Source: Myxococcales bacterium (GTDB lineage: Bacteria > Myxococcota_A > UBA9042). From it: 64,000 nucleotides of DNA. A model generated the notes under the pieces. It made no database searches. It worked only from the letters and a program-made list of their open reading frames with translations, and was not told the origin of the DNA. Position 1 is the stretch's first letter. Every line of letters begins with the position of its first letter. Positions 1,453-48,273 of this stretch are shown here, one piece after another. The stretch covers positions 64,001 to 128,000 of the forward strand of contig JBBISH010000001.1 in assembly GCA_037441385.1 (NCBI GenBank), written 5' to 3'. Made by a program: the position numbers and the translations under genes.

Positions 1453-2544
<1,092 letters not shown>

Positions 2545-27908: not shown

Positions 27909-29741
27909 ATGCGCGTTTGCCTGGAATGCGGCGCCGAAACCGAAGGGCTGTTCTGCCCGACCGACGGCATGGCCACTATCGTCTCGGGCCGCCAGCCGAC
28001 GAGCACTCAACTCCAGCCCCAGACCATTTTTGCCAATCGTTACCGCATCGTCGGTACGTTGGGTCGCGGCGGCATGGGCGCGGTCTACGACGCCCTGCAT
28101 ACCGGCACCGGCCAGCGCGTGGCGATCAAGACGCTGCTCATCGACGCGGCGCACGAACCCCAGGCCGTCAAACGGTTCTTCTACGAGGCCAAACTAACCG
28201 CCGGACTACAACACCCCAATACTATTCGCGTTTTTGATTTTGGTCAAAGCGACGACGGCATCTACTTCTTGGTGATGGAGCGGCTGCAGGGCGAGACGCT
28301 GGGGGAACGCCTGCAGCGCTACGCCGCGGAAGGGCGCACGATGGCCGAAAGCGAGGCCGCGTCGATCGGCGTGGGCGTCCTGCGCAGCCTGGGCGAAGCA
28401 CATCGGGTCGGCCTGGTCCACCGCGATCTGAAGCCCGGCAACATCTTCTTGCACGACATCGGTGGCGGCGAAACTGTAGTCAAAGTACTGGATTTTGGCA
28501 TTGCCAAGCACGGCGAGTCCAACTTGACGCAGTCGGGCACCAGCTTGGGCACCCCTTCGTACATGAGCCCCGAACAGGTAATGGGTCAGGCGATCGATGG
28601 CCGCAGCGATCTGTATTCGCTGGGCATCGTGCTGTACCAGTGCGTGTCGGGCAAGGTGCCATTCCCGGGCGAGTCGTCGTACACCGTGATGATGAAACAG
28701 GTTCACGACCCGGTGCCGGACCTGAGCGAGCTGGGTGGCACCTCCAAGGGCTTTGCCTTCATCGTCCGCCAAGCCATGGCCAAGAAGGTCGACGACCGAT
28801 TTGCCAGCGCCCAGGCGCTCCGCGAGGCCTTGGAACCGGTGGCGCGCGGCGAAGTGGTCCAGGCGCCGGGCGCCATCGAAGACAAGCCGACGCAAGCCCT
28901 GGCGACCGGTCAACTGCCACAGCCTTCGGCCGCACGGCCCCTGCCTTCGCCCCCTGTGAGCGCGACGCCGGGGCCCAGCAGTCCTTCGGCTGGCCACGTG
29001 CCGCCCCCGCCGCCCCCTTCGGCTGTCCCGCCGCCAGCCATGTCGGCGCCGTCGACCAAGATGGCCGCGCGCAAGCCGGGCGGTCCGGGGCAGCACCCCG
29101 AACCCGCGCCGCCGCGGGCGCAAGGCGACGCCCCGGTGGCGGTGACGGCACCCAAGAAGGCGAACTTCTTGCCGATACTGGTCGTCGGCCTCGCCCTCAT
29201 CGCCATCAGTCTGGCGATCGCCTGGTGGTTGCACGGCGACGGTTCCACTCCGCCCGACGCGGCCAGCGCCGATGCCGGCTCGGCGCCCAGTGCCCACCCC
29301 GACGTTGCCCCGGCAGCGCCGCCCCCAACCCAAGACGTTGCTGCGGCCGTCCCAGCTGCCGATGCCGGTTCGGCCGCCGAGGACGTCGACGTCCAGGTCG
29401 CGCAAGACGCCCAAGACGCCATAGATGCAGGCGAAAGCGTTGACACAGCCGACGCCGCGGACACTGCGGATTCGCCCGACGTGGCCAGCGCCGAAGACGT
29501 GGCGGCGGCGGATACCGCAAAAACCGGCGCTGAATCGGGCCTCCTCCCGCCCGAAGCGGGTGCATCGGCCGGCTCAACAGGCGAACCAGCCGGCGGCGAA
29601 CCGGCCAAACCGGTCAAGAAGAAGCCCGTGGTCCAATGGAAGCATGTCTGGGAGCACAAGGGCTACCGCGCGCCGGGTGACGGCCGGCCCAGCGCACCTG
29701 GGTCGCGCCCCTCGCAGCCAGGCACTCGGCCGTCGCGATAA
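27909..29741 (+). CDS. Hanks-type Ser/Thr protein kinase with an N-terminal CxxC..CPxDG ribbon, a TM helix and a low-complexity tail
   Basis: GRGGMG, VAIK, HRDLKPGN, DFGIAK, GTPSYMSPE, DLYSLG; TM 'FLPILVVGLALIAISLAIAWWL'. Confidence 0.95.
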   Translation: MRVCLECGAETEGLFCPTDGMATIVSGRQPTSTQLQPQTIFANRYRIVGTLGRGGMGAVYDALHTGTGQRVAIKTLLIDAAHEPQAVKRFFYEAKLTAGLQHPNTIRVFDFGQSDDGIYFLVMERLQGETLGERLQRYAAEGRTMAESEAASIGVGVLRSLGEAHRVGLVHRDLKPGNIFLHDIGGGETVVKVLDFGIAKHGESNLTQSGTSLGTPSYMSPEQVMGQAIDGRSDLYSLGIVLYQCVSGKVPFPGESSYTVMMKQVHDPVPDLSELGGTSKGFAFIVRQAMAKKVDDRFASAQALREALEPVARGEVVQAPGAIEDKPTQALATGQLPQPSAARPLPSPPVSATPGPSSPSAGHVPPPPPPSAVPPPAMSAPSTKMAARKPGGPGQHPEPAPPRAQGDAPVAVTAPKKANFLPILVVGLALIAISLAIAWWLHGDGSTPPDAASADAGSAPSAHPDVAPAAPPPTQDVAAAVPAADAGSAAEDVDVQVAQDAQDAIDAGESVDTADAADTADSPDVASAEDVAAADTAKTGAESGLLPPEAGASAGSTGEPAGGEPAKPVKKKPVVQWKHVWEHKGYRAPGDGRPSAPGSRPSQPGTRPSR

Positions 29742-29759
29742 GCCCAGCGACTTTCCGGT

Positions 29760-30983
29760 TCAGTAGACCGACAACCCCATCGACCCGCCCTGCGTCCAGC
29801 CGCCTGCGCTGACGGACGACTGCGCGTAATTGCCGCCGTAGCGCAAGAACATCGCCAGGCGGGTGGTCCACTCGATCTCGAATAGGCCGCCCACGGCGTA
29901 GTAGGGGCGATTCTCGCTGAACTCCGCCCAGTCGCCGCCGCCGGCCTTGGCCCACTCCAAGCCGGCACCGCCGTACGCGCCCAGGTGAAGGCGCCCCAAA
30001 TCCAACGGCATCAGCTGCACTTCCGCGCCCGCGCGCAGGGTCAGGTAGTCGCTTGCGCCAAAAGTGCCCGAGCCGAACTGCGTGCGCGCGACCACGCCCA
30101 CCATCTGAGTGGGGAAGACGCCAAACGCCAGCTCGGCCGCGCCCGCGGGCTGAACCATGCTGCCGCCCAAAGCCACGCCGGTGTAGCCGCCGCCCAACTG
30201 GTAGGTGAATCCTTCGCGATCCAGCGGCGCCCGCCCGCGCAGCCACAGGCCCATGCCCTCTTGGCCCACCAGGACCGCGGTCTCGTCGGGGCGCATGTCG
30301 CCGGGGCGAATCTCGTCCAGCGCCAGGATGCGGTGACCGCCGTTGTCGCTGAGCAAGTGCACCGGGTGGTGCGGGTGAACGGCGACCCAGCCGTCGTGGC
30401 GCGCCCCTTCTGTCGCGGCCAGCGCAACGCCCACAACGATGGCGGTGACCACTAGCACCGCCGCAGCCCCTGCCAGGCTATCGCGATCGGCCTTGCCCTT
30501 GCTGGCCGCGGCCTTGGCGACTTCGCTCATGCCCCCCTTGTCGGCCGGTCCTGGCGAAGGAGTCGCGACGCCGCCTGCCCCAACCGCACCACCGCCGCCG
30601 ACTCGAACATAGTAGGGCGTGTAGAACGGGTCACCCCAGCCGTAGCCACCGTAGTAAGAATAGTGCGGAGTTACAGGCACTCCGACCGGCACGGGCACCG
30701 GCGCGGGTGGCGCGTCGCCCGCCTCGGCTTGCGGACCGGGGTCAAAGGGCGGAGCCGGCGGCACATCGGCCGACGTCGAAAACCGTTGCACAGAGCGAAC
30801 ATGCTTACCCCGTTCGCTGCGGTCGACCTTGCTGAGGCGCTCGATCTCGTCGTGGCTGACCGTGAAGGTGGGCGACAAGCAAGCCGACTGAAGCAGGCCG
30901 GCAAGGGCGACCACGGCAACCGCGCCACTGCGCGCAAAGCGCGCGAGGACCGGGACTGGAATAGGGGAATAGGGCTCGCGCAT
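29760..30983 (-). CDS. Hypothetical lipoprotein with a Tyr/Gly-rich segment and C-terminal outer-membrane beta-barrel-like domain
   Basis: Lipobox-like QSAC. The last ~150 aa are alternating amphipathic strands ending in an aromatic residue (GLSVY). Confidence 0.6.
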   Translation of the reverse strand: MREPYSPIPVPVLARFARSGAVAVVALAGLLQSACLSPTFTVSHDEIERLSKVDRSERGKHVRSVQRFSTSADVPPAPPFDPGPQAEAGDAPPAPVPVPVGVPVTPHYSYYGGYGWGDPFYTPYYVRVGGGGAVGAGGVATPSPGPADKGGMSEVAKAAASKGKADRDSLAGAAAVLVVTAIVVGVALAATEGARHDGWVAVHPHHPVHLLSDNGGHRILALDEIRPGDMRPDETAVLVGQEGMGLWLRGRAPLDREGFTYQLGGGYTGVALGGSMVQPAGAAELAFGVFPTQMVGVVARTQFGSGTFGASDYLTLRAGAEVQLMPLDLGRLHLGAYGGAGLEWAKAGGGDWAEFSENRPYYAVGGLFEIEWTTRLAMFLRYGGNYAQSSVSAGGWTQGGSMGLSVY

Positions 30984-31165
30984 GTCGACCTCGCCGCAAG
31001 GATGCTGCCCGGCACTATAGCTCATTTCGGCGCAACCGCACCAATGGCGTGCCGCCCCCCACGCAGGGCATGCAACGGCGAGGCAACCTCGCTATGCTTG
31101 ACGCTTGGCCGCCGCCGCGGCAGCAGGGCAATATGGGGCGGGCGCTCCCGGTCATCGCCAATTGT

Positions 31166-33088
31166 ATGAGTATGTTCAACGCGTTGCCGCATGTCCAGCG
31201 CGCGACACTCGCGGCCAGCGTGGCGGCGGTGGGGCTGCTGGCTTGCCGGCGCGAGGCACCGGAAACGCCCGTGGCCGCACCTGCTTCAACTCAGGCGCCT
31301 GCCCCGGTTGCTGCTGAGTCCGTCCCGCCGCCTCGCTCGCCGCGCATGGGCTGGAGTTCGGGCCGAGTCGAACGCCAAACCATCGATGTGCTGGTGCGCG
31401 CGGACGCGCCTGGGCTCGAGCCCGGCCCGGCCGATGGCGCAATCCGCCCGGTGGCCGATGCGTGGCGGTCCCTGGGCGGCGTAGAGCACGTGGTCACGCG
31501 CGCGCGCGAAGGCGAAGTGCGGGCGCTGATTCGCTTTGACGCTACCGCGCAACTGCCCGACGCGGCCACCGCCGCAGTGGCCTCGGCCTGGCAAGCTCAC
31601 CGGCCGCCCGAGCTGGCAACGCCGCAAATTGCTTGGATTCCCAGAGGGAATCGCGCACGGTTAGGCTGGGCCTTTACCAGTTTTGACGGCGGCGAAGACG
31701 CGACCGCGTTGGCCGTGCAGGTAGCGCCGCAGCTGCTGCAGCAATGGCCGGCCTTGGCGCGCACCGAGGTCGCTGGCACGGTGCGGCCGGTGTTCTTCGT
31801 CGACGTGCTGACCAAGTCCGTGCAAGACCGCGGCTCGACCTTGGCGATGGTGGCGGCCGGGGTGCGAAATGTGCTGCAAAGCCACGCCGGGCAGACCAAG
31901 GTCGACGCGGGGCCGCAATCACAGAACATTTTGCAAGCAGCCGTGGATACGGGGAAAATCGGTGTGCACGATCGCGGCGCGCCCGTGGAATTGAGCCGCG
32001 TGGTGGCGCTGCGGCGCGGATTGGGCGGCCCGGTGCGCTCGGGGCTGGTCGGCCGAAACGAGGCGGTGCTCTTGCGCGGCGAGATGGGCGTCGGTGGCGA
32101 GATGGGCAATCTAGAGGCCAAGGCGCGGGCCGAGTTGGCTGCCGCTGGGCACCTGGGGGCGCGACGGCAGGTGTACCCGCAGACTCTGGCCGTGGCGTCG
32201 CGCCTGGTGTTGGATTTGCGCGCAGACCAAACGCCCGAGCGGCCCGTCGATCTGGCCAAACGGCTGTTGGTGGTCCGCGAAATGCCGGGTGTGGTGGGCG
32301 TGGCGGCCATGCAAGGTCTTGACGGGATTCCAGAACCGCTGGACAGCGACGTGCCCGCCAATCGCCGCTGGACGGTTTGGGTGACGGTGTCGACGCCCAA
32401 TGCCGAAGCGCTGATCACGTCGATCGCCGGGCAGCTTGGCGAAGGTCCGTGGCAGGCCTACTCGATCCCCGGCAACCTGGACACGAGCTTGGCTTGGCTG
32501 CTCGATCGTCCCGCGGCGGCGGGCGCGCTGGTGGCCGCTCGGGATCCGGCCCAGTTGGCGCCGGCGGTGGCCGCGCTGGGCGAACAGCTCAAGAAGCATC
32601 CAGACTTTGCCAACCTGCGATCGGGTCCGCAGCGACGCGGCGCCGTGGCGACGTTTGCCCGCCTGCGGGTCGACAACCTGCTGGCCGCGCACTTGCCTAG
32701 CGACGACGCGGCCTTGGCGCTGAACTTGGTCGACCGACCGCAGCCCATCGGTGTTTTTGGCGGCGCGGACGTGTGGTTGGGCCTGCCCACTGGCGCGATG
32801 GCTGCCGAGTACGGGACTCTGCCCCTGGCGTGGCTCCCGCCCGCGAACCGACCGGCGCTGCTGGGCGACATCATCCAACTGCCCAGCGACATGACCGTTT
32901 TGGAGCGTCTGCGCGTCGATGGCGATCCGGCGCTGTGGGTGCAGGTCGACAACCACGGGATGCTGCCCGATGTGGCGGTGACCGCGTTTCGCGACGCGTT
33001 TGAACGGGCCAGCATCGCGCCCACAGTGCAGCGCCTGGGCTTAACCGTGGCCGATCCCACCCTTGGCCTTGGGGCTTGCGTCCCATGA
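31166..33088 (+). CDS. Lipoprotein made of RND (CusA/AcrB-like) periplasmic porter and docking subdomains, without TM helices
   Basis: Lipobox LLAC. Collinear motif similarity (by eye) to PN1, PN2, DN, PC1, PC2 and DC of HME/HAE RND pumps; no TM blocks. Confidence 0.65.
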   Translation: MSMFNALPHVQRATLAASVAAVGLLACRREAPETPVAAPASTQAPAPVAAESVPPPRSPRMGWSSGRVERQTIDVLVRADAPGLEPGPADGAIRPVADAWRSLGGVEHVVTRAREGEVRALIRFDATAQLPDAATAAVASAWQAHRPPELATPQIAWIPRGNRARLGWAFTSFDGGEDATALAVQVAPQLLQQWPALARTEVAGTVRPVFFVDVLTKSVQDRGSTLAMVAAGVRNVLQSHAGQTKVDAGPQSQNILQAAVDTGKIGVHDRGAPVELSRVVALRRGLGGPVRSGLVGRNEAVLLRGEMGVGGEMGNLEAKARAELAAAGHLGARRQVYPQTLAVASRLVLDLRADQTPERPVDLAKRLLVVREMPGVVGVAAMQGLDGIPEPLDSDVPANRRWTVWVTVSTPNAEALITSIAGQLGEGPWQAYSIPGNLDTSLAWLLDRPAAAGALVAARDPAQLAPAVAALGEQLKKHPDFANLRSGPQRRGAVATFARLRVDNLLAAHLPSDDAALALNLVDRPQPIGVFGGADVWLGLPTGAMAAEYGTLPLAWLPPANRPALLGDIIQLPSDMTVLERLRVDGDPALWVQVDNHGMLPDVAVTAFRDAFERASIAPTVQRLGLTVADPTLGLGACVP

Positions 33089-34218
33089 AATCCGCCGCGC
33101 CGGATGCACGCGCCCGCGGGCGTCGCCGGCTGGCGACAGTTCTTGTCGCATGGCAGTTGACCGTCGGTTGTGGCGCGCTGGACGAGTCGGCCCCAGTGGT
33201 CGCCAAACCCAGCCACTGCAAGACCGTGGACGAGCGTCTGGCACCGCTGATGAAGCTGGCCCATCAGGGTAAAACCAGCCACCTGGCGGCACTGGTGGCC
33301 GAACGCCTGGATCCGGCTGGCCAACGCGCCGTAGTGCAACTGGTGCTGGACATTGCCTACGCGCTACCAGGGGACATCAGCAAGGATCTTCCAGATCTGC
33401 TCGCACCCACGGGTTTGGGCGCGCTGGTGCCGTTGCTGGTAGCCATCTTGGCTCCCCTGCCGGGTGATCCGCACGCTACGCCGCCGGTACCGCCCAAGAT
33501 CGAGGCCATGAAGGCGTTTTCGGCCGTGGCTCAAAGCTGCCTGAGCCAAGAGATGTTCGTTTTGGGCAAGCGGCTGTTCGCCGAGCCCGAAGCCGCCGAC
33601 GCGGTGGCGGGTCTGCTGGGCGCGGGCACGGGCGGGATCAAGCAGATCCTGGGTGCGGTGCAGGCCGCGGGCGCCGAGGGGCGCATGGGCATGCAGACGC
33701 TGGTCCGCAACCTGATGACTTCGCTGGCGGCCGATGATTTTGCCCCCGAGCCGCTGCTGGCGCTGCTCGACCGCCTGGTCGATCCTGCCAATCCCGGTGC
33801 GCTGGGTGCCGTGAGCACGTTCTTGCACAGCATGGTGCTGGGTCACTCGGCGCAGGACCGCCAGCAAGCTCTGCAGGCGCTGGGCGGATTTGCCAAGTGT
33901 ATGCTGGCGCTGGACCCCGACATGGCGATTGCCGGCCACGCCTACGATGTGGTGGCCAACTTGGAACTGCCCGAAGCGGCGACCATCACCATCGACACCC
34001 ACCGCTGGCTGCCCATTGTGGCGATTGCGATGGACGTGCTGGCCAGTCACCCCGCCTCGCGCGATGCCTGGAGCCAGCTGCTGGGACTGCTGCTGCGGCC
34101 AGAGACGGGTATCGCCGCCCTGCCCGACTTGGTCGCGCTGATGCAAAGCGAAGCGCTGCCAGGTGTTTTTGGTCTTCTGGCCGATCTGGTGGCCCTACCT
34201 TGCCAGGAGCAGCCGTGA
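33085..34218 (+). CDS. Hypothetical alpha-helical, Leu-rich lipoprotein
   Basis: ATGA overlap with the upstream gene; lipobox TVGC; amphipathic helical pattern; four additional Cys. Confidence 0.7.
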   Translation: MKSAAPDARARGRRRLATVLVAWQLTVGCGALDESAPVVAKPSHCKTVDERLAPLMKLAHQGKTSHLAALVAERLDPAGQRAVVQLVLDIAYALPGDISKDLPDLLAPTGLGALVPLLVAILAPLPGDPHATPPVPPKIEAMKAFSAVAQSCLSQEMFVLGKRLFAEPEAADAVAGLLGAGTGGIKQILGAVQAAGAEGRMGMQTLVRNLMTSLAADDFAPEPLLALLDRLVDPANPGALGAVSTFLHSMVLGHSAQDRQQALQALGGFAKCMLALDPDMAIAGHAYDVVANLELPEAATITIDTHRWLPIVAIAMDVLASHPASRDAWSQLLGLLLRPETGIAALPDLVALMQSEALPGVFGLLADLVALPCQEQP

Positions 34219-35621
34219 CCACCGCGCGGCTTGCGGCGGCTGCCGCGACCCTGTTCTTGGCAACTCCTTGCCATGCCTCGGTTTTTGAGCTGTTTGGCGC
34301 CGGTCCCCGCTCAATGGCGATGGTGGGCGCGAGCACGGCGTCGGCCGAGGGTGGCGAAGCCGCATTCCACAACCCCGCCATGCTCATGGCATCGCCCTTG
34401 GCCGGCGCGTGGTTCGGCGTGTCGACCACCCGCATGGGCCTGGACATCACATTGCAGCGGCCCGTCTGCACGGGCAGTTACACCAGCTGCAACAGCCAAT
34501 ATCCCGGTGGCTTTTCTAGCCGCAACCCCGTATTGCCAGAGAACTCGAGTGCCTTTGAGCTGGGCTGGAACTACCCGGTTGGCGGCATCTTGCGCAACCG
34601 GTTGGCCTTTGGCGCCGCGCTGGCCCTGCCGGTAGGGCACTTGATCCGCATTGCCGGCCCCGATCCGCAGGCGCCAAACTTCATTCAATACGAGGGCATG
34701 CCCGATCGCCTGGCCTTCCTGGTCTCGATGGCGGGCCGCATCACGGACCGATGGTGGCTGGGCGTGGGCACGCAGGTTCTGGCCGTGCTGAATGCGCAGA
34801 TCGACCTGCAACTCAACGCCACCAATCGCAACTATGACCGCGCGACCATCAACATCGGTCTGCAGCCGCGGGCGCGCTTGACCGCCGGCACCGCGTTCCA
34901 TCCCCGCGACGACCTGTGGTTTGGGCTGGCATGGCGACAGCAATTGTCGCTGCAATACGGCATCCCGGCCGATGTCGCCGTGGGTTCGCCCGCCGAGCTG
35001 GCCATTGGCTTGGGGCATGACACGCTGTACTCGCCGGATGTGGTCAGCTTGGGCGCGGCTTGGCGCAGTAGCCAGGGCGGCGTGCGCATGTCGGCCGATC
35101 TGGCCTGGTCGCGGTGGTCGGCGATGCCAGACCCTTCGCCGTCGGTAACCCTTGACGTCCGCGGCGACGGCGTGCGCGCCTTTGGCCTGAATTCGGCCTT
35201 GGATGTGGGCACGGATACCCCCATCATTGCCCTGCATTTCCGCGACACCTTCAGTCCGGCGCTCGCCACCGAAGTTCGCCTCACCGACGACCTGCTGCTG
35301 CGCGGCGGCTACCGCTACCGGCCCACGCCCGCACCTCGCGCCGAGGGGCCGTTCAAGTACCTGGACAACGACGCTCATATTCTGGGCTTGGGCGTGGGCT
35401 ACCACTTTGGGACCTTGGCCCCACGTCTCCAGCAGCAACTCCGCGACGCGGGTGCCAGCGCCGTGGACACGCCCGGTCCGCTGCACGTCGACGTGGGGAT
35501 CCAGAGCCAGATCCTGCCTCAGCGCACGGTCTACCCCAGCGACGTCCACGACCCGGTCGGTGGCATCGCCCACGGCGGCAGTGTCTGGCACGCGGGGGTC
35601 GCATTCGGCGGCAGCTTCTGA
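34215..35621 (+). CDS. FadL/OmpP1-family outer-membrane transporter
   Basis: GTGA overlap; signal peptide; hatch motif 'GPRSMAMVGASTASAEGGEAAFHNPA'; 'LRGGYRYRPTP'; C-terminal Phe. Confidence 0.8.
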   Translation: MTTARLAAAAATLFLATPCHASVFELFGAGPRSMAMVGASTASAEGGEAAFHNPAMLMASPLAGAWFGVSTTRMGLDITLQRPVCTGSYTSCNSQYPGGFSSRNPVLPENSSAFELGWNYPVGGILRNRLAFGAALALPVGHLIRIAGPDPQAPNFIQYEGMPDRLAFLVSMAGRITDRWWLGVGTQVLAVLNAQIDLQLNATNRNYDRATINIGLQPRARLTAGTAFHPRDDLWFGLAWRQQLSLQYGIPADVAVGSPAELAIGLGHDTLYSPDVVSLGAAWRSSQGGVRMSADLAWSRWSAMPDPSPSVTLDVRGDGVRAFGLNSALDVGTDTPIIALHFRDTFSPALATEVRLTDDLLLRGGYRYRPTPAPRAEGPFKYLDNDAHILGLGVGYHFGTLAPRLQQQLRDAGASAVDTPGPLHVDVGIQSQILPQRTVYPSDVHDPVGGIAHGGSVWHAGVAFGGSF

Positions 35622-35724
35622 CACAATCGCCTGCGGGACCGCGGGGCAGCGCAGGATCACGTCGACATGGCGCAGGCTTCCCCAGTTACCAGCGCGACTT
35701 GCGCCAGCACCGGTGTGGCCATCC

Positions 35725-36492
35725 ATGCAACAGATACTCCGCAATCGCATCCGCATAGGCCTACTCGCGACGGCCGCGACCTTGGCGCTTGCCGGCTGCG
35801 GCAGCTCGACCAGCACGCCGAGCGCCGCCAGCGACAGCCAAGGCAGCCTGGACACCGCCAGCAGCGACACCAAGGCCGATACCAACACCACCAAGACGGA
35901 CACCACCGTCAAAGCCGACACCACCAAAGCCCCCTGCAAGCCTTGGGAAACGCCCACCGAATGGAACTGCCCAGCCGACACGCACTGCGCGTACGACGAG
36001 AATGACGTGATCGCCTGCATGCCCAACGGCAGCCACGGCGTGGGCGAAGACTGCGCCGACGGTGGCGGCTGCAAGATCGGGCTGTGCGTGCAAGCCAGCA
36101 ACGGCGCATCGGCCTGCGCCCCGTTCTGCACGACTGAGAGCCAGTGCGACTCGAACACCTGCAACAAGATCCAGGGCAAGAAGTACAGCACCTGCGACGT
36201 GGCCAAGTACACCTCGTGCGCGCCCCTGACGCCCAAGTGCCCCACGGGCCAGTCGTGCTACCTGCTGGGCAACCTGGGCTTTGTCTGCTCGAACGCCGGC
36301 ACGCTGCAAAGCGGCGAGGCTTGCGTCAGCAATTCGGAGTGTGCGCCCGGCCTTACGTGCGCGGGCGCCGCGGGCAGCACCAACGGCCTATGCCGCAAGC
36401 TGTGCAGCACCACCTCTCAGCCCAACGGCTGCGACGATCCGTCGACCAACTGCTCCAAGCTCGGCTCGGGCGCAGGGTACTGTGAGCAATAG
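35725..36492 (+). CDS. Cysteine-rich lipoprotein with a Thr/Ser-rich linker
   Basis: Lipobox LAGC; 'DTKADTNTTKTDTT' linker; Cys repeats such as 'GEACVSNSECAPGLTC...CRKLC'. Confidence 0.8.
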   Translation: MQQILRNRIRIGLLATAATLALAGCGSSTSTPSAASDSQGSLDTASSDTKADTNTTKTDTTVKADTTKAPCKPWETPTEWNCPADTHCAYDENDVIACMPNGSHGVGEDCADGGGCKIGLCVQASNGASACAPFCTTESQCDSNTCNKIQGKKYSTCDVAKYTSCAPLTPKCPTGQSCYLLGNLGFVCSNAGTLQSGEACVSNSECAPGLTCAGAAGSTNGLCRKLCSTTSQPNGCDDPSTNCSKLGSGAGYCEQ

Positions 36493-36525
36493 CCGCCCCG
36501 TCCGCTTGACTCAGGTAGGGTTCGC

Positions 36526-38037
36526 ATGAGCACTCCTCCCAGCCTGCTCGACATTTTGGACACCACGGTCACGCTCGAGTGGGCCGAGACGCGCAGTATG
36601 GGCACGCTGCTGCAGCTTGGCGGGCGCAGCTTGGTGGTCACGGCCCTGCGCGCACCCGAAGTCGGCACCACGGTGTTCCTGCGCATCGAAGACGACAAGT
36701 CCGGCGAGGCCATGGCAGTCGACGGAACCTGCACCGGCGTGACCCAGAGCGACTGGGGCGAGCAGGAAGTCGCCCTCGACGTCAAACGGGTCGGGACAGT
36801 GGCCTCGGCGGCGGCGCTGCGCAGTTTCTTGGAGCGGCACGGCCTGGAACCCGGCGGCGCGGTGTCGGTCGGCCGCAATCGCGACAATCCCGACCTGAAG
36901 CGCTACGTCTACACCCTTCCCGAGCCCAAGCCCGGTAGCACCGCGACCTCGCCGATTCTCCCGGCGAATGTCACCGCCCGGAACCCTGCACCGGTCGTCC
37001 ACGAGTCCACCAAAACCCTTGGATCGCGCACGGATTTGGCCGCCCAGATTGAAGCCGCTCGGTCTGCCGCGGCGGCTCCACAAGAAGCTGTGGGGCTGGC
37101 CAGGCCCACCGCCCCTTCGCCGCCGCCGGCCGTCGCCATTTCTGTACCGATGCTGGACTCCAGCGCAGATCAAGAGTTGGCTGACCTGCTCTCGGCCCTG
37201 TCCAACGAACGCCCGACCCCGGCGATCGATACCTTGGCCATCGTCACTCCCACCAGCACTGCCGCCAGCCCTGCCGCACCGGCGCAGGCCAAGCCGGCCG
37301 CACCGACCAGGACCGCAGGGCCAAGTGCCGACGAAAACGCTACGGTCGAGCTGTCGCTCGCCAGTCTGGCGCTGGCGGCGCCCAGTCATTCGCCGGTGCC
37401 GACCGCCGCGCAACCGCTGCCGCGTCCGCCAAGCCCCCCGCAGGGAATCTCGGCCCCGGGCAGCCTGCTCGGCGCGGCGCTCAAGCCGGCCCCGGCCAAG
37501 CCAGCGGTCGATCTCGACCACGACTTCTCGGAGAAGATCCTGGTCCAGACCGTCGATCAGGCCACTACGATTGCGGCGCCCGTGGTCACAGTTCCAGGCC
37601 GCGACCGGCCGGCGCCGTCCAGCCCCGCGCTGAACAATCGCCCCACCGAGCAGTCGCCGATGGCGGGCCTGAGCCACACCGAACCGCTCGGCGCGGCACC
37701 ATTGTTCGCCACCGACTCGGCGCAGCGGGTAGAAATTGCGGTCCAGTTCGAACTGGGGCCCAAGAAGAAGAAGATCCCGGGCACATTGATCCGTTTGGGC
37801 GAAAGCAAGTTGCGGGTATGCAGCGACAGCCTGCCCCAATTGTACGAGCGCCTGGCCGTGCTGGTGCCGCTCAAGAACAATCCCAAGAACCTGCTGACGT
37901 TGCGCTGCGAAGTCACCCGCGTGCGCACCGGCGAAGACGGCAGCGTGCCCTGCTTTGACGCCCGCCTGACCGCGGCCGGCAACACTCCGGCGATTCTGGC
38001 CAAAGTGCGCGAATTGCTGAACGAGCCCCCAGGATAG
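36526..38037 (+). CDS. Hypothetical protein: two degenerate PilZ-like domains joined by a long Pro/Ala linker
   Basis: N-terminal 'GTLLQLGGRSLVV...PEVGTTVFLRI...VDGTCTGV' and C-terminal 'GTLIRLGESKLRV...LTLRCEVTRV'. Confidence 0.5.
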   Translation: MSTPPSLLDILDTTVTLEWAETRSMGTLLQLGGRSLVVTALRAPEVGTTVFLRIEDDKSGEAMAVDGTCTGVTQSDWGEQEVALDVKRVGTVASAAALRSFLERHGLEPGGAVSVGRNRDNPDLKRYVYTLPEPKPGSTATSPILPANVTARNPAPVVHESTKTLGSRTDLAAQIEAARSAAAAPQEAVGLARPTAPSPPPAVAISVPMLDSSADQELADLLSALSNERPTPAIDTLAIVTPTSTAASPAAPAQAKPAAPTRTAGPSADENATVELSLASLALAAPSHSPVPTAAQPLPRPPSPPQGISAPGSLLGAALKPAPAKPAVDLDHDFSEKILVQTVDQATTIAAPVVTVPGRDRPAPSSPALNNRPTEQSPMAGLSHTEPLGAAPLFATDSAQRVEIAVQFELGPKKKKIPGTLIRLGESKLRVCSDSLPQLYERLAVLVPLKNNPKNLLTLRCEVTRVRTGEDGSVPCFDARLTAAGNTPAILAKVRELLNEPPG

Positions 38038-38082
38038 GTTGCAGTCGAACCCAGGCCCACGCGGCCCCCGGCGGAGCGAACC

Positions 38083-38781
38083 ATGCCGCACGTACTGATC
38101 GTCGAAGACGAACCGGACTTGCGCGCGTTGGTGGCCCACCACGTGGAAATGGCCGGGCACTCGTGCAGCGAGGCGGGAACTTGCGCCGAGGCCTTGGCAG
38201 CGGCCGGCCAGCAACGGCCCGACATCGTCATCCTGGACCTGATGCTGCCCGACGGTTCGGGCGTGGACGTGTGCCGCAGCCTGCGCGCGCAGCCCAAGCT
38301 GGCCACGGTGCCGATCCTCATGCTGACCGCGCTGGCGGCCGAACCCGAGCGCGTGACGGGCTTCGAGGCCGGTGCCGACGACTACGTGACCAAGCCGTTC
38401 TCGGTCCGCGAGCTGATGTTGCGGATCTCGGCCATCCTGCGGCGTGCGCCCGCGGAGCCGCCGCCGCCGAGCAACGTGGTCGAGGCCGCCGGAATTCGCC
38501 TGGACGCCGAGCGCCACGAGGTCCACGTCCAGGGTGAGTTGCTGCACCTGACCGCGCTGGAATTCCGCCTGTTGGCCGCGCTTTTGGCCAACGCGGGCAA
38601 GGTGCTGACGCGCCAGTCGCTGCTGGAAGATGTGTGGGAGATGAGCCCTGATCTGCGGACGCGGACAGTCGATACGCACGTCAAGCGCCTGCGCGAGCGC
38701 CTGGGCCCCGCTGGCGAGGCCATCGCCACCGTGCGCGGCGTGGGCTACAGCTTGCGCACGGGCAGCGAGGGCCCACAGTGA
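38083..38781 (+). CDS. OmpR/PhoB-family response regulator (PhoB-like)
   Basis: 'VLIVEDE', 'ILDLMLPD', 'GADDYVTKPFS', winged HTH 'RTVDTHVKRLR...TVRGVGY'. Confidence 0.92.
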   Translation: MPHVLIVEDEPDLRALVAHHVEMAGHSCSEAGTCAEALAAAGQQRPDIVILDLMLPDGSGVDVCRSLRAQPKLATVPILMLTALAAEPERVTGFEAGADDYVTKPFSVRELMLRISAILRRAPAEPPPPSNVVEAAGIRLDAERHEVHVQGELLHLTALEFRLLAALLANAGKVLTRQSLLEDVWEMSPDLRTRTVDTHVKRLRERLGPAGEAIATVRGVGYSLRTGSEGPQ

Positions 38782-39854
38782 GTCCCGACGGCAGCCGCGG
38801 ACCGCCGCCCAACCCGCGCGCCAACCTGTTCTCGACCATGATCGACGCCATGGGCGACGGCATGATGGTTGTGGACGACAAGCTCCGGGTGGTCGTCACC
38901 AACCGCAGCCTGCGCGATACGCTGGTTTGGGCCAGTACCAGCCAAGGGCAGCCGCTGGTCAGCTTGGTCGACGCGCCGCAGTGGGTGGATGCCTGCGCCA
39001 CGGTCTTGGCCGGCGGCGAGCCGCGCACGCTCGAGGTCGTTCACCGCGGCCTCCGCGAACGGCTGCTGGAGGTGCGGGTGGTGCCGCTGCCCGACCACGA
39101 GTACTGGGGGCACCGCGTCCTCTGCGTGGTGCGCGACGTCACCGAGACGCGCGCCGTCGAGCGAATGCTCATGGACTTTATCGCCAACGCCAGCCACGAG
39201 TTGCGCACGCCCACCGCCGCCATCCTGGGCTGGGCCGAGACGCTGGTCGACGCGCCGCCAACCAACCCCGAAAAGCTGGCGCAAATCCACGCGACACTGT
39301 ACCGCCACGCGAGCCGCCTCAAGATTCTGCTGGGCCAGTTGCTCGATCTGTCGCGCTTGGACCAGCACCAGTGGCACCTGCAGAGCAGCGCCATCGACGT
39401 GGCCGCCTTGCTGCACGGGTTGTTAGAGCACTACCGCGACGAGGCCAACGGCGCAGGCCTGACGCTGCAAACCGAGCTAGAGGCCCACCTGCCGCCCGCG
39501 CTGGCCGACCGCGGCGCCCTGGAGATCGCGCTGGGCAATCTGGTGCAAAATGCCATCAAGTACTCGACCTGCGGCGGCAGCGTGACCGTGCGCGCCCGGC
39601 GGAGCCGCGAGCCGAACACCCGCACGCTGCGCATCGAAGTGGTCGACTGCGGAATCGGCATCCCGCCCGACGATCAGCAGCGGGTTTTCGAGCGTTTCTA
39701 TCGCGTGGACAAGGGGCGCTCGCGGCAAGTTGGCGGCGCGGGCCTGGGTCTGTCCATCGTGCAATCGCTGGTGCAACAGCTGGGCGGCCGCCTGGAGCTA
39801 CACAGCGAGATCGGTCAAGGGTCGACCTTCGCCGTGATCCTGCCCATTGGATAG
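38778..39854 (+). CDS. PhoR-like cytoplasmic sensor histidine kinase (PAS-HisKA-HATPase)
   Basis: 'DFIANASHELRTP', 'NLVQNAIKY', 'DCGIGIP', 'FERFYRVDKGRSR..GGAGLGLSIV'; no TM helix. Confidence 0.9.
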   Translation: MSPDGSRGPPPNPRANLFSTMIDAMGDGMMVVDDKLRVVVTNRSLRDTLVWASTSQGQPLVSLVDAPQWVDACATVLAGGEPRTLEVVHRGLRERLLEVRVVPLPDHEYWGHRVLCVVRDVTETRAVERMLMDFIANASHELRTPTAAILGWAETLVDAPPTNPEKLAQIHATLYRHASRLKILLGQLLDLSRLDQHQWHLQSSAIDVAALLHGLLEHYRDEANGAGLTLQTELEAHLPPALADRGALEIALGNLVQNAIKYSTCGGSVTVRARRSREPNTRTLRIEVVDCGIGIPPDDQQRVFERFYRVDKGRSRQVGGAGLGLSIVQSLVQQLGGRLELHSEIGQGSTFAVILPIG

Positions 39855-39860
39855 GGTCGC

Positions 39861-40418
39861 TCAGCCCGCCGTGGCGAAGCGGCTGGTGACGAACTCGGCC
39901 GTCACGCGCACACCGTTGATCACAAAGGCAATGTGGATGTCGCGCAGATCGTAGGTCGTCTGCAATTCGGTCAGGATGGCGTCGCCCTGCTCATCGGTGA
40001 TGGACTCGATGGCCTCCACGTCCTCGTTGATCTTCTTGACCTCTTTTTGCAGGTCGTTGTACAGGCGCCACTCCGCCTCGTCCCAGTTGAAGATCACCAA
40101 CTGGGCCAACAGGCCGTTGCGCTTGCCAAAGATCTCGGCGCGGAACACCTTTTCCAGGTGACCGGCGTCGATCTTTTGCGGACGGTAGCCCTTGAAATGA
40201 CGGAAGAAGACGCCGCGGTCCAGCTTCTCGAGCTCGGCCAAGAAGGTCCGCAGCGGCAAGCGGCGGCAAATGCGCGCAAGTTGCTTGCCCGACAGGCTCT
40301 CTAGCGCGGCAATGGCGTCGCGGTCATCGTCGCGGGCCGCGTCCGTGGCTGCGGTGCCCTGCGCGGGAGTGTCGGTTTCGGCCTGCGCCGGCGCTACTTG
40401 CTCGAGTTCCTGGGTCAT
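39861..40418 (-). CDS. Hypothetical protein (185 aa)
   Basis: ATG at 40418 with a globular-looking, typical-codon ORF; no family assigned. Confidence 0.65.
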   Translation of the reverse strand: MTQELEQVAPAQAETDTPAQGTAATDAARDDDRDAIAALESLSGKQLARICRRLPLRTFLAELEKLDRGVFFRHFKGYRPQKIDAGHLEKVFRAEIFGKRNGLLAQLVIFNWDEAEWRLYNDLQKEVKKINEDVEAIESITDEQGDAILTELQTTYDLRDIHIAFVINGVRVTAEFVTSRFATAG

Positions 40419-40521: not shown

Positions 40522-41298
40522 TCAAGAGTTGCCGGGCAATTTCGGCCGCCGCGACAGCGCGATCCAGACCGCAACCAGCGTCACCGCCAACAGATACCAC
40601 GTCGAGGCATACTCGATGTGCTTGGTCGGCAACGGGTGGATCGGATACTCATAGCCATCGAGCGGCCAGGCCTCTGGATTGACCGGCTGGCCCACCGCCT
40701 GCTCGCCCGCGTCCAGCAGCAGGTCGGGATCCAGATCCGCGACCGTAGCCGAAATCGCCTTGGGATCCGCAATCATCCAAGTCGCCAACCCTTCGTGACT
40801 GCCCAGCGGCTGCTGGCCCGGCGGCGCGTCGCCCACCACCCGAAGCCGGCCGCGAAACAGGTCGGGCGGCTCAGTCGCCAGCTTCTTGCGGAACTCGGGC
40901 AACTTGTCGACAGGAACCCAGCCCAAATTCACCAAGAGCTTGGCGTGCGGCCCCGACGCGACCTGGATCGGCGCAAGCACACCCCAGCCACGCTGACCAA
41001 ACTTGTAGCGCGCGGTCAGCAGGTTGAGGTGCTCCAGGTCCAGCTTGCCGCGCAGAGCCGCCCGGCGAAAATGCAGCTGTTCCAGCCGGTTGGAGCTTCC
41101 CTGCCCTTCACTCAGGCTGGTCACCGGCGGCCGCTCGTCGTGCTGGCGCCGGTACTGCTCGACCCGACCGCTGGTTTCGCCAAAACGGCGCACCTGCCAC
41201 GTGCCCAGGCTGAGCAAAATCCCCAGCATGATCACGGCAATGAGGGTCGGCACCAGCTTGGGCGCAAATACCTTTGGATTGTCTTGCTGTTGCGTCAT
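40522..41298 (-). CDS. SURF1 family cytochrome oxidase biogenesis protein
   Basis: 'LLSLGTWQVRR', 'LLVNLGWVP', 'KHIEYASTWYLLA'. Confidence 0.9.
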   Translation of the reverse strand: MTQQQDNPKVFAPKLVPTLIAVIMLGILLSLGTWQVRRFGETSGRVEQYRRQHDERPPVTSLSEGQGSSNRLEQLHFRRAALRGKLDLEHLNLLTARYKFGQRGWGVLAPIQVASGPHAKLLVNLGWVPVDKLPEFRKKLATEPPDLFRGRLRVVGDAPPGQQPLGSHEGLATWMIADPKAISATVADLDPDLLLDAGEQAVGQPVNPEAWPLDGYEYPIHPLPTKHIEYASTWYLLAVTLVAVWIALSRRPKLPGNS

Positions 41299-41325
41299 GT
41301 TGGCGCCCCGTCCTGGCGGTGTGCT

Positions 41326-41958
41326 CTAGGGCTGCTCGGCCAGACCCCGGGCAGCGGCTTCCAGCGCCTGCATGCCGGCCGCGTCCCGATCGAAAAGCCC
41401 ACGCAGGTGCCCCTGCCGGTCCACCAGCACAAAGCGCAGGCTGTGGGCCGTGTCCAGCGGAGTGGGCGCCAGGATCGCCGTGTGCTCCGAAGGCAGCCCG
41501 GTCACGCGATCCGCGCGGATGATCGGCTGCATGAAGCCCTGCACCACCAGCCGCTCCATGGTCTCGTACTCACCGGTCAGCAGCGACCAAACCCGCGTGT
41601 CGGCGCCATATTTCTGGCCGTAGGCGCGCAGCACCTCGGGCGTGTCGGTCATCGGGTCCACCGAGATGCTGATGATTCGTACCGGTGGCTTGCCCGTGGC
41701 CGGCATCCAGGCCTTCAGGCGATTCTGCAGCTCGGCTGTGGCTTTGGCGAGCGGCGGACACTGGGTGGGGCAAGACGTAAACAAGAAGTTGGCGATCCAG
41801 ACCGTGCCGCGCAGGCTGGTGTCGTCCACGGGCCGGCCGTCTTGATCGGTCATCGCAAAGGCCGGCAGCACGCCCAGGTCTTGCAGGGGCGGCGCGTCGC
41901 GACGGCAAGCCAGCAGCACCACCGTCGTCGCGGCCACGAGCCACGCGCGGCCGGTCAT
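41326..41958 (-). CDS. SCO1/SenC family copper chaperone (lipoprotein)
   Basis: 'FLFTSCPTQCP', 'SISVDPMTDTPEVL', 'HSLRFVLVDRQG'; lipobox LLAC. Confidence 0.93.
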   Translation of the reverse strand: MTGRAWLVAATTVVLLACRRDAPPLQDLGVLPAFAMTDQDGRPVDDTSLRGTVWIANFLFTSCPTQCPPLAKATAELQNRLKAWMPATGKPPVRIISISVDPMTDTPEVLRAYGQKYGADTRVWSLLTGEYETMERLVVQGFMQPIIRADRVTGLPSEHTAILAPTPLDTAHSLRFVLVDRQGHLRGLFDRDAAGMQALEAAARGLAEQP

Positions 41959-43259
41959 GGTGCCCCCGCAGGCGCGGCCAGCCATGGCTGGGCAGGCAAG
42001 GGCCCGGTCAGGCTGGTCAAGAAAGCCACCAGATCTTCAGCATCTACGCTGCCGGGCAGCGGCCGCAGGGTCAGCTCGCGGTGCCCCAGCTGCGCCTTGC
42101 CAGGCAAGGTGCGATAGAAATCGACCACATCACGCAAGGTTGCCGCCTGTCCCGCGTGAAAGTAGGGCGCCGTCATCGCCACATTGCGCAGACTAGGCGT
42201 CTTGAACGCCCCGACAAAGTCGGCAAAGCGCGGATCCAAGAACCGGAGTTCGTCGCATTGCTTGGCATCCGAGTACGCCTCGCCACAGCGGAACGGGTCG
42301 TGCTTGACCTGCCCCGCGCCCAGCGTGCGACCGCCGTCCACTCCGGTCAGAGGTTGGCCTTGATCGTCGTCGCCACCGGGCAGACCCAGGTTGTGGAAGG
42401 TGCGGTCGCTGAAAAGCGGCCCGTTGTGGCAGTTGACGCAGCCTGCGGTGCCGATGAACGCCCGCAGACCGCGCCGCGCAGACTCGCTCAAGTGCCCACC
42501 GCCCGCGGCATCGCCCGCCACCACGGCCTGTACGTAGCGATCGAACGGCGCTGGCTGCGGCTGCAGGTGCCGTTCGTAGGCCTCGATTGCTTTGCCAAAA
42601 TGGGCGAATACGCGGTTCACCGCGTCTTGGTCTGCCGGCTGCATCGCCGCCCAGGCCACCTGCAGCGGGTGCTGCCGGTCCAGATCCACTGGCATGGCGT
42701 GGGGCGGAAAGCGCTGCAGATCGGCCAAATTCGGCATCGGGCCAAACAGCTGCTCGTAGGGCTGCCGATAGCGATCGTACAGGGCGTGCGCCAGTGCCAG
42801 ACGATCCAGCCCGTGCTCGTTCGCGGCTTCAACGGGCCCCAGCGCCTGCGACCACGCGCTGTCTTTGCGGCCGTCCAAGAACAAAAACGGGAACCAGCCC
42901 GCACCGATCACGGTGGGCGCGTTGCGCTTGGTCGCTCCCACCCCTTGGGCCTGCCGTCGACCGTCCGTAAAATACTTTTGCGGCTCGTGGCAGGTCGCGC
43001 ATGCCACCTTGCCGTTGCTAGAAAGGGCCTTGTCAAAGAACAGAGCTTGCCCCAGCTTGGCGGCGTTCGGCTCATCGGCCCAGCGATTGCCAGGACTTGC
43101 GGGCAGTTTGTTGACCAGCGCCAGGCTCGCCAGTATGCGCAGCTCTGCCGGAGTCCACGGGCCGTCGCTAGTCCGGCAACCCACGCCCGCCACACCAAGC
43201 AGGCTGGCGACGAGCAGCCACCGCAGCGGCGGCCCCAAACGAAGTCCCAAGCGGTCCAT
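41955..43259 (-). CDS. Diheme cytochrome c peroxidase superfamily protein (MauG/MbnH-like)
   Basis: 'LGQALFFDKALS.NG.VACATCH', 'RNAPT', 'CVNCHNGPLFSD', 'FKTPSLRNVAMTAPYFHAG...VVDFY'. Confidence 0.9.
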   Translation of the reverse strand: MDRLGLRLGPPLRWLLVASLLGVAGVGCRTSDGPWTPAELRILASLALVNKLPASPGNRWADEPNAAKLGQALFFDKALSSNGKVACATCHEPQKYFTDGRRQAQGVGATKRNAPTVIGAGWFPFLFLDGRKDSAWSQALGPVEAANEHGLDRLALAHALYDRYRQPYEQLFGPMPNLADLQRFPPHAMPVDLDRQHPLQVAWAAMQPADQDAVNRVFAHFGKAIEAYERHLQPQPAPFDRYVQAVVAGDAAGGGHLSESARRGLRAFIGTAGCVNCHNGPLFSDRTFHNLGLPGGDDDQGQPLTGVDGGRTLGAGQVKHDPFRCGEAYSDAKQCDELRFLDPRFADFVGAFKTPSLRNVAMTAPYFHAGQAATLRDVVDFYRTLPGKAQLGHRELTLRPLPGSVDAEDLVAFLTSLTGPLPAQPWLAAPAGAP

Positions 43260-43265
43260 GGTGGG

Positions 43266-43811
43266 CTACTGCGCCGCGCCGGCTGGCAATGCCTCGGGCG
43301 GTTGTTCAAAGGGCAACTCGAAGGAATCGCTTTGATCCCCCTCGCGCACCTGCACAGAGAACACCCAGTGGCCCTGCATGTGCAGGCGCATCCCCTGGGT
43401 GCGGAATTGCCCCGGCACCAACTGCGCCGTCTCAGGCTTGGTCATCATGCCATGGTGGTGGGCCGGCATGGTCGCATCCACGATCACGGTGGCGTCGGCA
43501 GCCAGCGGCGCGCCGTCCGAGTGCTGCACCCGCGTCACCGCCGCAAACAGGTCGCCGGTCGACGGCACGGTAAAGGTAAAGGTGCCTTTGTACTTGCCGG
43601 CCTTGCTGGTGCCGCCCAGCTCCATGGCGGTGCCAACGGCCGGTGCCGCATTCGCCGGCGCTTGCGCCTGTGCCGGCGCTGGAGCCAGGGCCGGGGCTGG
43701 AGCCAGGGCCGGGGCTGGAGCCAGGGCCGGAGCCGGAGCGGGGACCGGAGCCGCCTTGCCGCATGCACAAAGCACAACAATTCCAAGCAGTAGAAAATGG
43801 GGGGCATTCAT
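43266..43811 (-). CDS. YtkA/FixH-like His/Met-rich lipoprotein
   Basis: Lipobox LCAC; (APALAP)n linker; 'VDATMPAHHHGM', 'GMRLHMQGHW'. Confidence 0.75.
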   Translation of the reverse strand: MNAPHFLLLGIVVLCACGKAAPVPAPAPALAPAPALAPAPALAPAPAQAQAPANAAPAVGTAMELGGTSKAGKYKGTFTFTVPSTGDLFAAVTRVQHSDGAPLAADATVIVDATMPAHHHGMMTKPETAQLVPGQFRTQGMRLHMQGHWVFSVQVREGDQSDSFELPFEQPPEALPAGAAQ

Positions 43812-44884: not shown

Positions 44885-44939
44885 GGGAACTTCTTTGGCC
44901 TACGCGACATGGCCGTGGCCTCCGGAGCGCTTCTCTGGC

Positions 44940-45695: not shown

Positions 45696-46354
45696 TTGAT
45701 GAACTCCAACAGGTAGACGAAGGTGAAGATGACGATCCAGACGATGTCGACGAAGTGCCAGTACAGGCCCGCGGACTCCACGGTGATCGGCGAGCGCTCT
45801 TTGTTCAGCTTGCCGTTGCTGATCATGATCGACAGCATCGTCAACCAGATGACGCCCACGGTCACGTGCGCGCCGTGGAAGCCGGTCATGACAAAGAAGG
45901 TCGAGCCGAACAGCGAGGTCGACAGCTTCAGCCCCTCTTCGACGAACTGCGAGAACTCGTACACCTGGAAGCCGACAAACGTCGCGCCGAGCGCCGCCGT
46001 GGCCAGGATGTAGGTGCGCGCGCTGCTGAGCCGCTTCAACCGCGTCGCGTCCACCGCCAGCGCCATCGTCATCGACGACATCAGCAGCAAGAACGTAGAG
46101 ATCGACGTGATGGCGATCGAGAAAACCTGGTTCGGCAGCGGGCCGGCCAGGCTCTTGCCATGGTAGAAGAAATAGGTGCCGATCAGCGAGCCAAAGAACA
46201 TGCACTCGGACCCCAGGAAGGCCCACATCGCCAGTTTGATGTTGGGCAGGCCCAGGAAGTTGTTCTCGGCGCTCACGTGGCCGTGGTCACCGTGGCCGGC
46301 GTCGTGGCCGGCGTCGGGGAGGTGACCGTCTGCAGTGGCGAGCTCTGCGCTCAT
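45692..46354 (-). CDS. ctaE: Cytochrome c oxidase subunit III
   Basis: 'MWAFLGSECMFF', 'FFVMTGFHGAHV', 'GLYWHFVDIVWIVIF'. Confidence 0.95.
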   Translation of the reverse strand: MSAELATADGHLPDAGHDAGHGDHGHVSAENNFLGLPNIKLAMWAFLGSECMFFGSLIGTYFFYHGKSLAGPLPNQVFSIAITSISTFLLLMSSMTMALAVDATRLKRLSSARTYILATAALGATFVGFQVYEFSQFVEEGLKLSTSLFGSTFFVMTGFHGAHVTVGVIWLTMLSIMISNGKLNKERSPITVESAGLYWHFVDIVWIVIFTFVYLLEFIK

Positions 46355-46399
46355 GAAATCCTCACTTCGAAACAGAAGAAGCTGCGAACAGTTTGCCGA

Positions 46400-48241: not shown

Positions 48242-48273
48242 AGCGAGCTCCTTATAGAATCGGTACGAACGTG

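Follow-up and report, generated by a model that had tools for sequence, protein, structure and literature searches.

We analysed a 64,000-nucleotide stretch of contig JBBISH010000001.1 from a Myxococcales bacterium (assembly GCA_037441385.1), hereafter the window, and give all coordinates as positions within it. At its centre lie four consecutive plus-strand genes: g1 (31166-33088; 640 amino acids [aa]), a predicted lipoprotein that consists of two periplasmic loops of a resistance-nodulation-division (RND) pump and has no transmembrane (TM) domain; g2 (33085-34218; 377 aa), an orphan all-alpha predicted lipoprotein; g3 (34215-35621; 468 aa), a FadL/TodX/OmpP1-family outer-membrane channel; and g4 (35725-36492; 255 aa), an accessory Cys-rich predicted lipoprotein. 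A first-pass annotation, made from the letters alone, had read these genes as one envelope transport system joined by two start/stop overlaps and a gap of about 100 bp. Its account of the junctions is accurate, as the ATG of g2 shares bases with the TGA of g1 (ATGA, 33085-33088), the GTG of g3 shares bases with the TGA of g2 (GTGA, 34215-34218), and 103 bp separate g3 from g4. Codon-position G+C content backs all four frames, with 0.78-0.88 at third positions (GC3) and 0.48-0.61 at second positions (GC2) in a genome of about 65-70% G+C. The claim that all four proteins are exported also held, since the translations carry lipoboxes in g1 (LLAC), g2 (TVGC), and g4 (LAGC) and a classical signal peptide in g3 whose end lies at PCHA/SVFELFG. 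Likewise, Pfam found no membrane transport domain among the four exported proteins and g1 has no 19-residue Kyte-Doolittle window at or above 1.6, as the annotation had anticipated when it denied them an inner-membrane transport domain, with the caveat of one hydrophobic segment in g2 that is described below.

The g1 protein of the window matched no family in Pfam or NCBIfam, in Pfam even at E<=10. A word-indexed search of 5.8 billion proteins placed its relatives in three clusters, and an exhaustive search of 1.84 billion representatives retrieved 43 at E<=0.001, 41 of them at E<=1e-10. None of the 43 is longer than 704 aa, and most measure 550-700 aa. When the profile of the family alignment, which holds 34 near-full-length members, was compared with PDB sequences, it matched CusA at 1.7e-6 over two separate segments, one for each periplasmic loop (profile 84-250 to CusA 50-222 and 513-635 to CusA 735-863), with further matches to MtrD, MdtB, and other pumps. 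The Pfam family ACR_tran appeared at E<=1 in 21 of the 34 members and at E<=0.1 in 16 of 24 members scanned separately, each of these 16 matches falling at profile positions of about 33-220; three of the 24 reached its gathering score of 28 bits (P0041, 36.0; P0058, 35.4; P0052, 28.5). Using hhalign with a five-sequence RND reference alignment (CusA, a CzcA, AcrB, MdtB, and MdtC), we found that g1 60-335 aligns with CusA 32-320, which is the whole first periplasmic loop (Prob 96.2, E 2.7e-9), and that g1 347-616 aligns with CusA 572-848, the second periplasmic loop (Prob 88.3, E 2.9e-6). The parts of CusA that hold the TM2-7 and TM8-12 segments (321-571 and beyond 848) have no counterpart in g1. 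A word search with the 34-sequence profile returned four proteins, of which the sole one from outside the family was a 1009-aa CzcA (3.7e-8), and the family aligned weakly with AcrB as a single sequence (E 0.28). By these alignments, g1 is nearest in sequence to CzcA/CusA-type pumps, more so than to AcrB. A comparison of the two halves of g1 was collinear but not significant as an internal duplication (E 0.19), a search of the Atlas with g1 gave ACR_tran fragments at 0.80, which we take as a lead only, and tblastn of g1 against plasmids gave no match.

Structure prediction agrees with the profile comparisons. An AlphaFold2 model of g1 built on the 34-member alignment had a mean predicted local distance difference test score (pLDDT) of 88.0 and a predicted template modelling score (pTM) of 0.87, with block-mean pLDDT of at least 78 from about residue 70 to 630 and values mostly below 50 over residues 1-59. 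Foldseek returned 244 PDB matches to this model at E<=0.001, and those listed were all RND-type efflux pump entries, two of them under generic titles. The top matches were chains of about 578 residues from AcrBper, the engineered soluble head of AcrB (5ENT, 5ENO, 5EN5, 7B8R, and 7B8S; E 3.2e-24 to 1e-22, TM-score 0.50-0.57 over about 620 columns), followed by full-length CusA (TMq 0.53-0.57), CmeB, AdeB, MtrD, and AcrB. Isolated internal hydrophobic peaks occur in 8 of the 34 relatives, at one or two per protein and never more. Together, profiles and model identify g1 as the porter-plus-docking head of an RND pump from which the 12-helix membrane domain has been deleted, which bears out the first-pass description of an RND headpiece, although Pfam does not see it.

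Nine residues are invariant in the 34-member g1 alignment (R123, R346, D386, G387, T403, W405, D439, W444, and P488). In the hhalign alignment, D386-G387 fall beside the cleft methionine M623 of CusA, a position that is consistent with a conserved binding cleft. Separately, g1 has a lone cysteine, C638 (about 33077-33079), two residues from its C-terminus in the context A-C-x-P; it is kept in the three closest homologues and in P0028 but not across the wider family, and it could form an intermolecular disulfide.

The place of TM1 appears to be taken by a lipid anchor. In g1 a disordered tether rich in Pro and Ala runs for about 32 residues beyond the lipobox Cys27, and judged from these sequences it is this lipobox and tether that occupy the TM1 position. 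A recognisable lipobox is present in 22 of the 34 relatives, and in these 22 the cysteine and the first conserved strand lie 45-80 residues apart (median, 62.5), with 54-82% of the segment made up of P, A, S, T, G, or Q. Lys or Arg stands at +2 or +3 after the lipobox in 20 of the 22, and the window protein reads C-R-R. In Myxococcus xanthus, the available text of one study reports Lys at +2 in 8 of 12 inner-membrane lipoproteins (PMC3222651). By analogy, g1, with its Lys/Arg at +2 or +3, is probably held on the inner membrane.

The second protein is an orphan. All 15 relatives of g2 are unnamed or annotated as "hypothetical," and the alignment of the resulting 16 members shows an invariant lipobox cysteine and, directly after it, G-A-L-D-D-S; all 16 lack Lys and Arg at positions +2 to +6. 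Four further cysteines of the mature protein are invariant (C45, C152, C272, and C373), a Pro-rich loop reads PLPGDP-x-A-x-PP-x-PP, and the disordered linker is short, at about 16 residues. The overall hydropathy of g2 is strikingly high for an exported protein (+0.38 in the window member; family range, +0.20 to +0.51), and a conserved hydrophobic peak, GLGALVPLLVAILAPLPG, at about residues 105-125 scores 2.21. The first-pass annotation had called g2 helical, and AlphaFold2 indeed gives an all-alpha model with 18 helices (pLDDT 74.8, pTM 0.71). We found no relative of known identity: Foldseek of the model against the PDB gave no match at E<=0.001 (best E 0.21, best TM-score 0.13), Pfam gave none at E<=10 and NCBIfam none, the best match among PDB sequences had an E of 0.18, and the best in the Atlas scored 0.75, neither of which offers a lead. 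An adaptor or outer-membrane factor was considered and rejected, as hhalign gave Prob <=0.2 against each of AcrA, CusB, MdtA, CusC, and CusF, and the same comparisons showed g2 to be unrelated to RND proteins. MlaA was rejected as well, since hhalign aligned the signal peptide only. Because its tether is short and no basic residue follows the lipid-modified cysteine, g2 is probably located in the outer membrane.

The third protein, in which the annotation had seen a FadL-like channel with an extra Cys-pair loop, scored 50.3 bits with Pfam Toluene_X, above the cut-off of 29.7 (E 1.7e-13), over positions 22-369 of the 421-position profile. FadL-family channels are 14-stranded barrels that have a kinked strand, a lateral opening, and a hatch at the N-terminus marked by a conserved NPA motif. 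In g3 this motif is present as FHNPAML near the N-terminus. This motif, the Cys pair CTGSYTSC (C64/C71 of the mature protein), and a C-terminal GGSF are each present in 8/8 orthologues. Direct comparison with Escherichia coli FadL gave an hhalign E of 3.2e-5, with the alignment limited to the C-terminal half. On this sequence evidence, g3 is classified as a FadL-family outer-membrane channel. It is not an AupA equivalog (NCBIfam NF041571), for which it scored 24.6 bits against a cut-off of 840.

To see how far the arrangement is conserved, we scanned 185,579 species genomes with two g2 peptide patterns and recovered seven loci (L001-L007), which are labelled as Myxococcales or Myxococcota metagenome-assembled genomes (five), a Deltaproteobacteria bacterium, and a Proteobacteria bacterium. 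By tblastn, g1 lies immediately 5' of g2 in all six loci with upstream sequence (L004 begins inside g2), and g3 lies immediately 3' of g2 in all seven. Identity to the window proteins is 32-68% for g1, 50-77% for g2, and 57-82% for g3, and the pairwise identity matrices resolve three clades that are the same for each of the three proteins. The surroundings are clade specific: the window and L001 have a divergent gene without a family and a Ser/Thr kinase upstream of the cassette, L002 and L003 have Bat-like VWA, TPR, and BatD genes directly upstream of g1, and the downstream genes of L004-L007 are unrelated. Since the flanks differ between clades while the order g1-g2-g3 is constant, the conserved unit is these three genes, which are inherited together. 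The cassette is carried by a small group of uncultured Myxococcota. Neighbourhood conservation had been named in the first-pass annotation as a check that could sink its proposal; the genes do co-occur, in the same order, and the three-gene core of the proposed module stands. Its fourth member does not, as g4 was found in only two of the six loci with readable downstream sequence (L001 and L003) and is absent from L004-L007, L002 being outside this count since it ends 83 bp past g3.

In a three-sequence alignment the g4 protein shows 24 invariant cysteines; it also contains a linker of about 45 residues that is rich in Ser, Thr, and Asp, and it has no match in Pfam, NCBIfam, or the PDB. From its sequence it is probably an optional disulfide-rich accessory, either surface exposed or periplasmic. 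Where g4 is present, the next three plus-strand genes are shared as well: the window (36526-39854), L001 (about 13283-16746), and L003 (about 13468-17370) all continue with g5, a response regulator, and a histidine kinase. In the window, g5 (36526-38037; 503 aa, GC3 0.81) has neither a signal peptide nor a family; it appears cytoplasmic, with ends that look folded and a long Pro/Ala-rich middle. It is followed by an OmpR-type, PhoB-like response regulator (38083-38781; plus strand, GC3 0.89) and a PhoR/PnpS-like PAS histidine kinase that has no membrane or periplasmic part. Both members of the pair score below the equivalog cut-offs (PhoB-like, 232 bits against 296; PhoR-like, 255 against 334), and a possible tie of the trio to phosphate limitation is a lead. 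A 722-aa open reading frame on the opposite strand (36511-38679) was dismissed as a shadow frame, its GC3 being 0.70 compared with 0.81-0.89 for the plus-strand genes.

Three in-frame start candidates exist for g1, at 31094, 31133, and 31166, and the database protein for g1 of this window takes the first of them (664 aa). The ATG at 31133 is preceded by AGGG and is shared with the closest orthologous locus, L001, where the surrounding CAGGGCAA-N-ATGG upstream of g1 is conserved. This ATG may be the true start, in which case 31166 is 11 codons too short. Since the lipobox lies downstream of every candidate, all three yield the same mature protein. The divergent intergenic region 5' of g1 (31026..31165) carries a 17-nucleotide block, GCAACCTCGCTATGCTT, at about 31083-31099 that is identical in the orthologous region of L001 in a pairwise DNA alignment, and it is a possible promoter element. 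A consensus promoter scan of the plus strand found nothing above chance in the region 5' of g1, promoter- and terminator-like sites were at chance level in the scan as a whole (1 promoter-like site versus 0.7 expected and 8 terminator-like sites versus 6.0 expected), and Rfam gave no matches across 29500-40000.

The remaining neighbours of the cassette are varied. The divergent gene on the minus strand (29760-31025), which is conserved solely in L001, encodes a 421-aa protein whose sequence includes LLQSAC, which resembles a lipobox, and a hydrophobic helix in the middle (AAAVLVVTAIVVGVALAAT). Its C-terminal part is Gly-rich with an aromatic end (GLSVY) and has a beta-barrel-like look; the protein belongs to no family. 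The Bat-like genes of L002 (1-7561) and L003 (1-7611) lie on the same strand as g1 and encode a VWA protein, a 1330-aa VWA-TPR protein, and an 880-aa BatD-TPR protein. We considered these as part of the unit and rejected them, as the Bat proteins of L002 and L003 have no tblastn match in the window. The window has MoxR (AAA_3) and DUF58 genes at 1426-3783, about 27 kb upstream of g1. Further away lie a minus-strand cytochrome c oxidase cluster (40522-49743) with SURF1, SCO1/SenC, CtaG, COX3, COX1, and a COX2 with a cytochrome c domain; two plus-strand genes for proteins with Dictyostelium-type Cys-rich repeats (7795-10629, 944 aa, and 58416-63962, more than 1848 aa to the end of the window); and a minus-strand gene (52953-55208) for a 751-aa caspase-domain (Peptidase_C14) protein with DUF4384.

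The genes g1, g2, and g3 form a single conserved, translationally coupled envelope cassette. We tentatively propose that its products would, without a motor, pass hydrophobic molecules from one membrane of the envelope to the other, a reading suggested by sequence comparison and modelled folds that we regard as possible rather than probable. A hydrophobic substrate would enter through g3 and leave it sideways into the outer membrane as in FadL, and g2, sitting at the outer membrane, would take up or channel the molecule at the inner leaflet. The g1 head, leashed to the inner membrane, could then swing, bind the cargo in the RND substrate cleft, and deliver it to the inner membrane, or collect it from there. 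Flux would come from a concentration gradient or from metabolic trapping in the cytoplasm, with no use of the proton motive force. Uptake is the favoured direction over export. The fuller form of this proposal, that g1 is a natural "AcrBper," an RND head taken off its motor and put on an inner-membrane leash to ferry molecules for FadL-type channels together with a new-fold g2, so that the whole would be an energy-independent trans-envelope relay, is one that we consider doubtful.

Several observations weigh against the relay. RND heads normally serve export, which leaves the direction open. Genes for the catabolism of fatty acids, alkanes, or aromatics are missing from the window, as are any further genes for RND proteins, adaptors, or outer-membrane factors, so the context offers no clue to the substrate. 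The nearest relatives do not help, either: of the methionine cluster of the CusA periplasmic cleft, which we take to be M573, M623, and M672, the first two are replaced in g1 by Val and Ser in the hhalign alignment, and the substrate class is therefore not transferable from CusA-type pumps. Confidence in the g2 model is no more than moderate, and the hydrophobic helix of g2 could be embedded in the membrane rather than belong to a carrier. Two of the 22 lipobox-bearing g1 relatives lack Lys/Arg at +2/+3 under the lipobox that our script chose, and a sorting rule from M. xanthus may not be valid in this uncultured lineage. Lastly, the genomic context comes from seven loci and the window, all found through g2, compared with 43 g1-family clusters.

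The same three-part machine might instead handle the cell's own lipids or metabolites, either in Mla-like retrograde or anterograde traffic or in the export of a hydrophobic product or signal, with g2 as an outer-membrane-embedded partner of the barrel and g1 as the periplasmic carrier. RND heads are, as a family, built for export, a hydrophobic all-alpha lipoprotein beside a barrel resembles the pairing of MlaA with a porin, and no catabolic genes lie nearby. We nevertheless find this unlikely, since g2 has no similarity to MlaA (nothing in Pfam at E<=10 and only the signal peptide in hhalign), ABC and MCE components are absent, as is an energy source for directional export, and g3 keeps the FadL hatch and NPA motif as importers do.

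On another account, g2 would be a surface lid on g3 in the style of SusD on SusC, with g4 as a second surface lipoprotein and g1 confined to the periplasm. In most of the 16 g2 sequences, acidic residues stand at +5/+6 behind the lipobox (C-G-A-L-D-D-S), and they resemble the acidic export signals of lipoproteins in Bacteroidota. The conserved cysteines of g2 and the 24 of g4 are capable of disulfides, and the Cys loop of g3 directly follows the first predicted strand, where it would probably be extracellular. However, no rule for the export of surface lipoproteins is known for this lineage, and no SusD fold was among the Foldseek matches to g2. The matrix-sorting signal of M. xanthus is Ala at +7 according to the available text of PMC3222651; g2 does have Ala at +7 (C-G-A-L-D-E-S-A), but this is only suggestive, and we judge the lid to be improbable.

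A quite improbable alternative is that g1 acts as a modulator or decoy for complete RND pumps encoded elsewhere, docking on their adaptors or outer-membrane factors, or that the cassette has a structural or signalling role linked to the PhoB/PhoR-like system next to it. The adaptor-binding docking and porter surfaces are retained at the level of the fold, and g5 and the PhoB/PhoR-like pair do follow the cassette in the window, L001, and L003. On the other hand, g1 is coupled to g2 and g3 and not to pump genes, and there is no homologue of an RND pump, an adaptor, or an outer-membrane factor in the window; the strict coupling of g1-g2-g3 without pump genes therefore argues for a self-contained unit. 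Nor are g5 and the two-component system beside the cassette in L004-L007, and the histidine kinase lacks a membrane or periplasmic part. That the genes merely happen to be adjacent, with g1 as the decaying remainder of an RND pump gene, is exceedingly improbable: we found nothing in its favour, and against it stand the consistent length of the 43 relatives, their lipoboxes, the confident fold prediction, a gene order that holds down to 33-38% g1 identity, and the overlapping start and stop codons.

Returning to the relay, its parts come from known superfamilies (RND, FadL, and lipoproteins), while g1 itself has no dedicated Pfam or NCBIfam family. To our knowledge, RND transporters have always been described as proton-driven membrane machines. 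A limited literature search found no natural membrane-less RND head, nor is one described in the available text of PMC8277102. The heads of the ACR_tran pumps, both the CusA/CzcA group and the AcrB/MexB/MdtBC group, are homologous to g1 in their porter and docking parts, over both loops. The pumps are homotrimers with a docking loop that reaches between protomers; unlike them, g1 has no TM2-TM12 and no proton-relay domain, its TM1 is replaced by a lipid anchor, and neither the cassette nor the window has an adaptor or a TolC-like gene. The nearest structural parallel is AcrBper, which, like g1, joins loop 1 and loop 2 of an RND pump without the membrane domain. Its crystals contain a trimer, and it binds drugs without the motor, according to the available text of PMC8617272, which shows that an RND head can bind ligand on its own. 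AcrBper, however, is a laboratory construct, whereas g1 is a natural gene family with a lipobox and a long tether, and the two share only about 12% sequence identity. If g1 is indeed a natural lipoprotein family that keeps only the substrate-handling head, it would show that this head has its own function, and as a naturally soluble RND head it could be used for structural and ligand-binding work. The relay, if true, would be an envelope transport system of a previously unrecognised type, and g2 adds a protein that is confidently predicted to be helical and for which the PDB offers no structural match at E<=0.001.

The front end of the Mla system consists of the MlaA lipoprotein with OmpC/F and the MlaC carrier, and its likeness to the cassette is an analogy of parts only: an outer-membrane barrel, a hydrophobic helical lipoprotein, and a periplasmic carrier. 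It differs in that g2 is unrelated to MlaA, there is no ABC/MCE complex, and the barrel is of the FadL type and not a porin. In Cycloclasticus, the outer-membrane barrel PahS hands polycyclic aromatics to the periplasmic binding protein PahP, and a two-component system is adjacent, according to the available text of PMC10570129. PahP is a classic two-lobe substrate-binding protein, the passages on PahS-PahP in that text make no mention of FadL, and the kinase next to our cassette is cytoplasmic and adjacent only in the window, L001, and L003. The closest functional precedent for the cassette is AupA-AupB of Marinobacter, in which an outer-membrane FadL-family protein and an inner-membrane protein physically interact and are both needed for alkane uptake (PMC5989066, available text). 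As in our cassette, the aupAB operon pairs a FadL-type channel with a second envelope protein and, per the same text, deals with very hydrophobic substrates (PMC5989066). Neither aupAB nor the fadL locus of E. coli has anything equivalent to the partners of g3, namely the RND head and the orphan helical lipoprotein. The available text of the Marinobacter study states that the crossing of the periplasm by FadL substrates is unresolved (PMC5989066), and a FadL channel that is hard-wired to two candidate carriers offers concrete proteins with which to approach that question.

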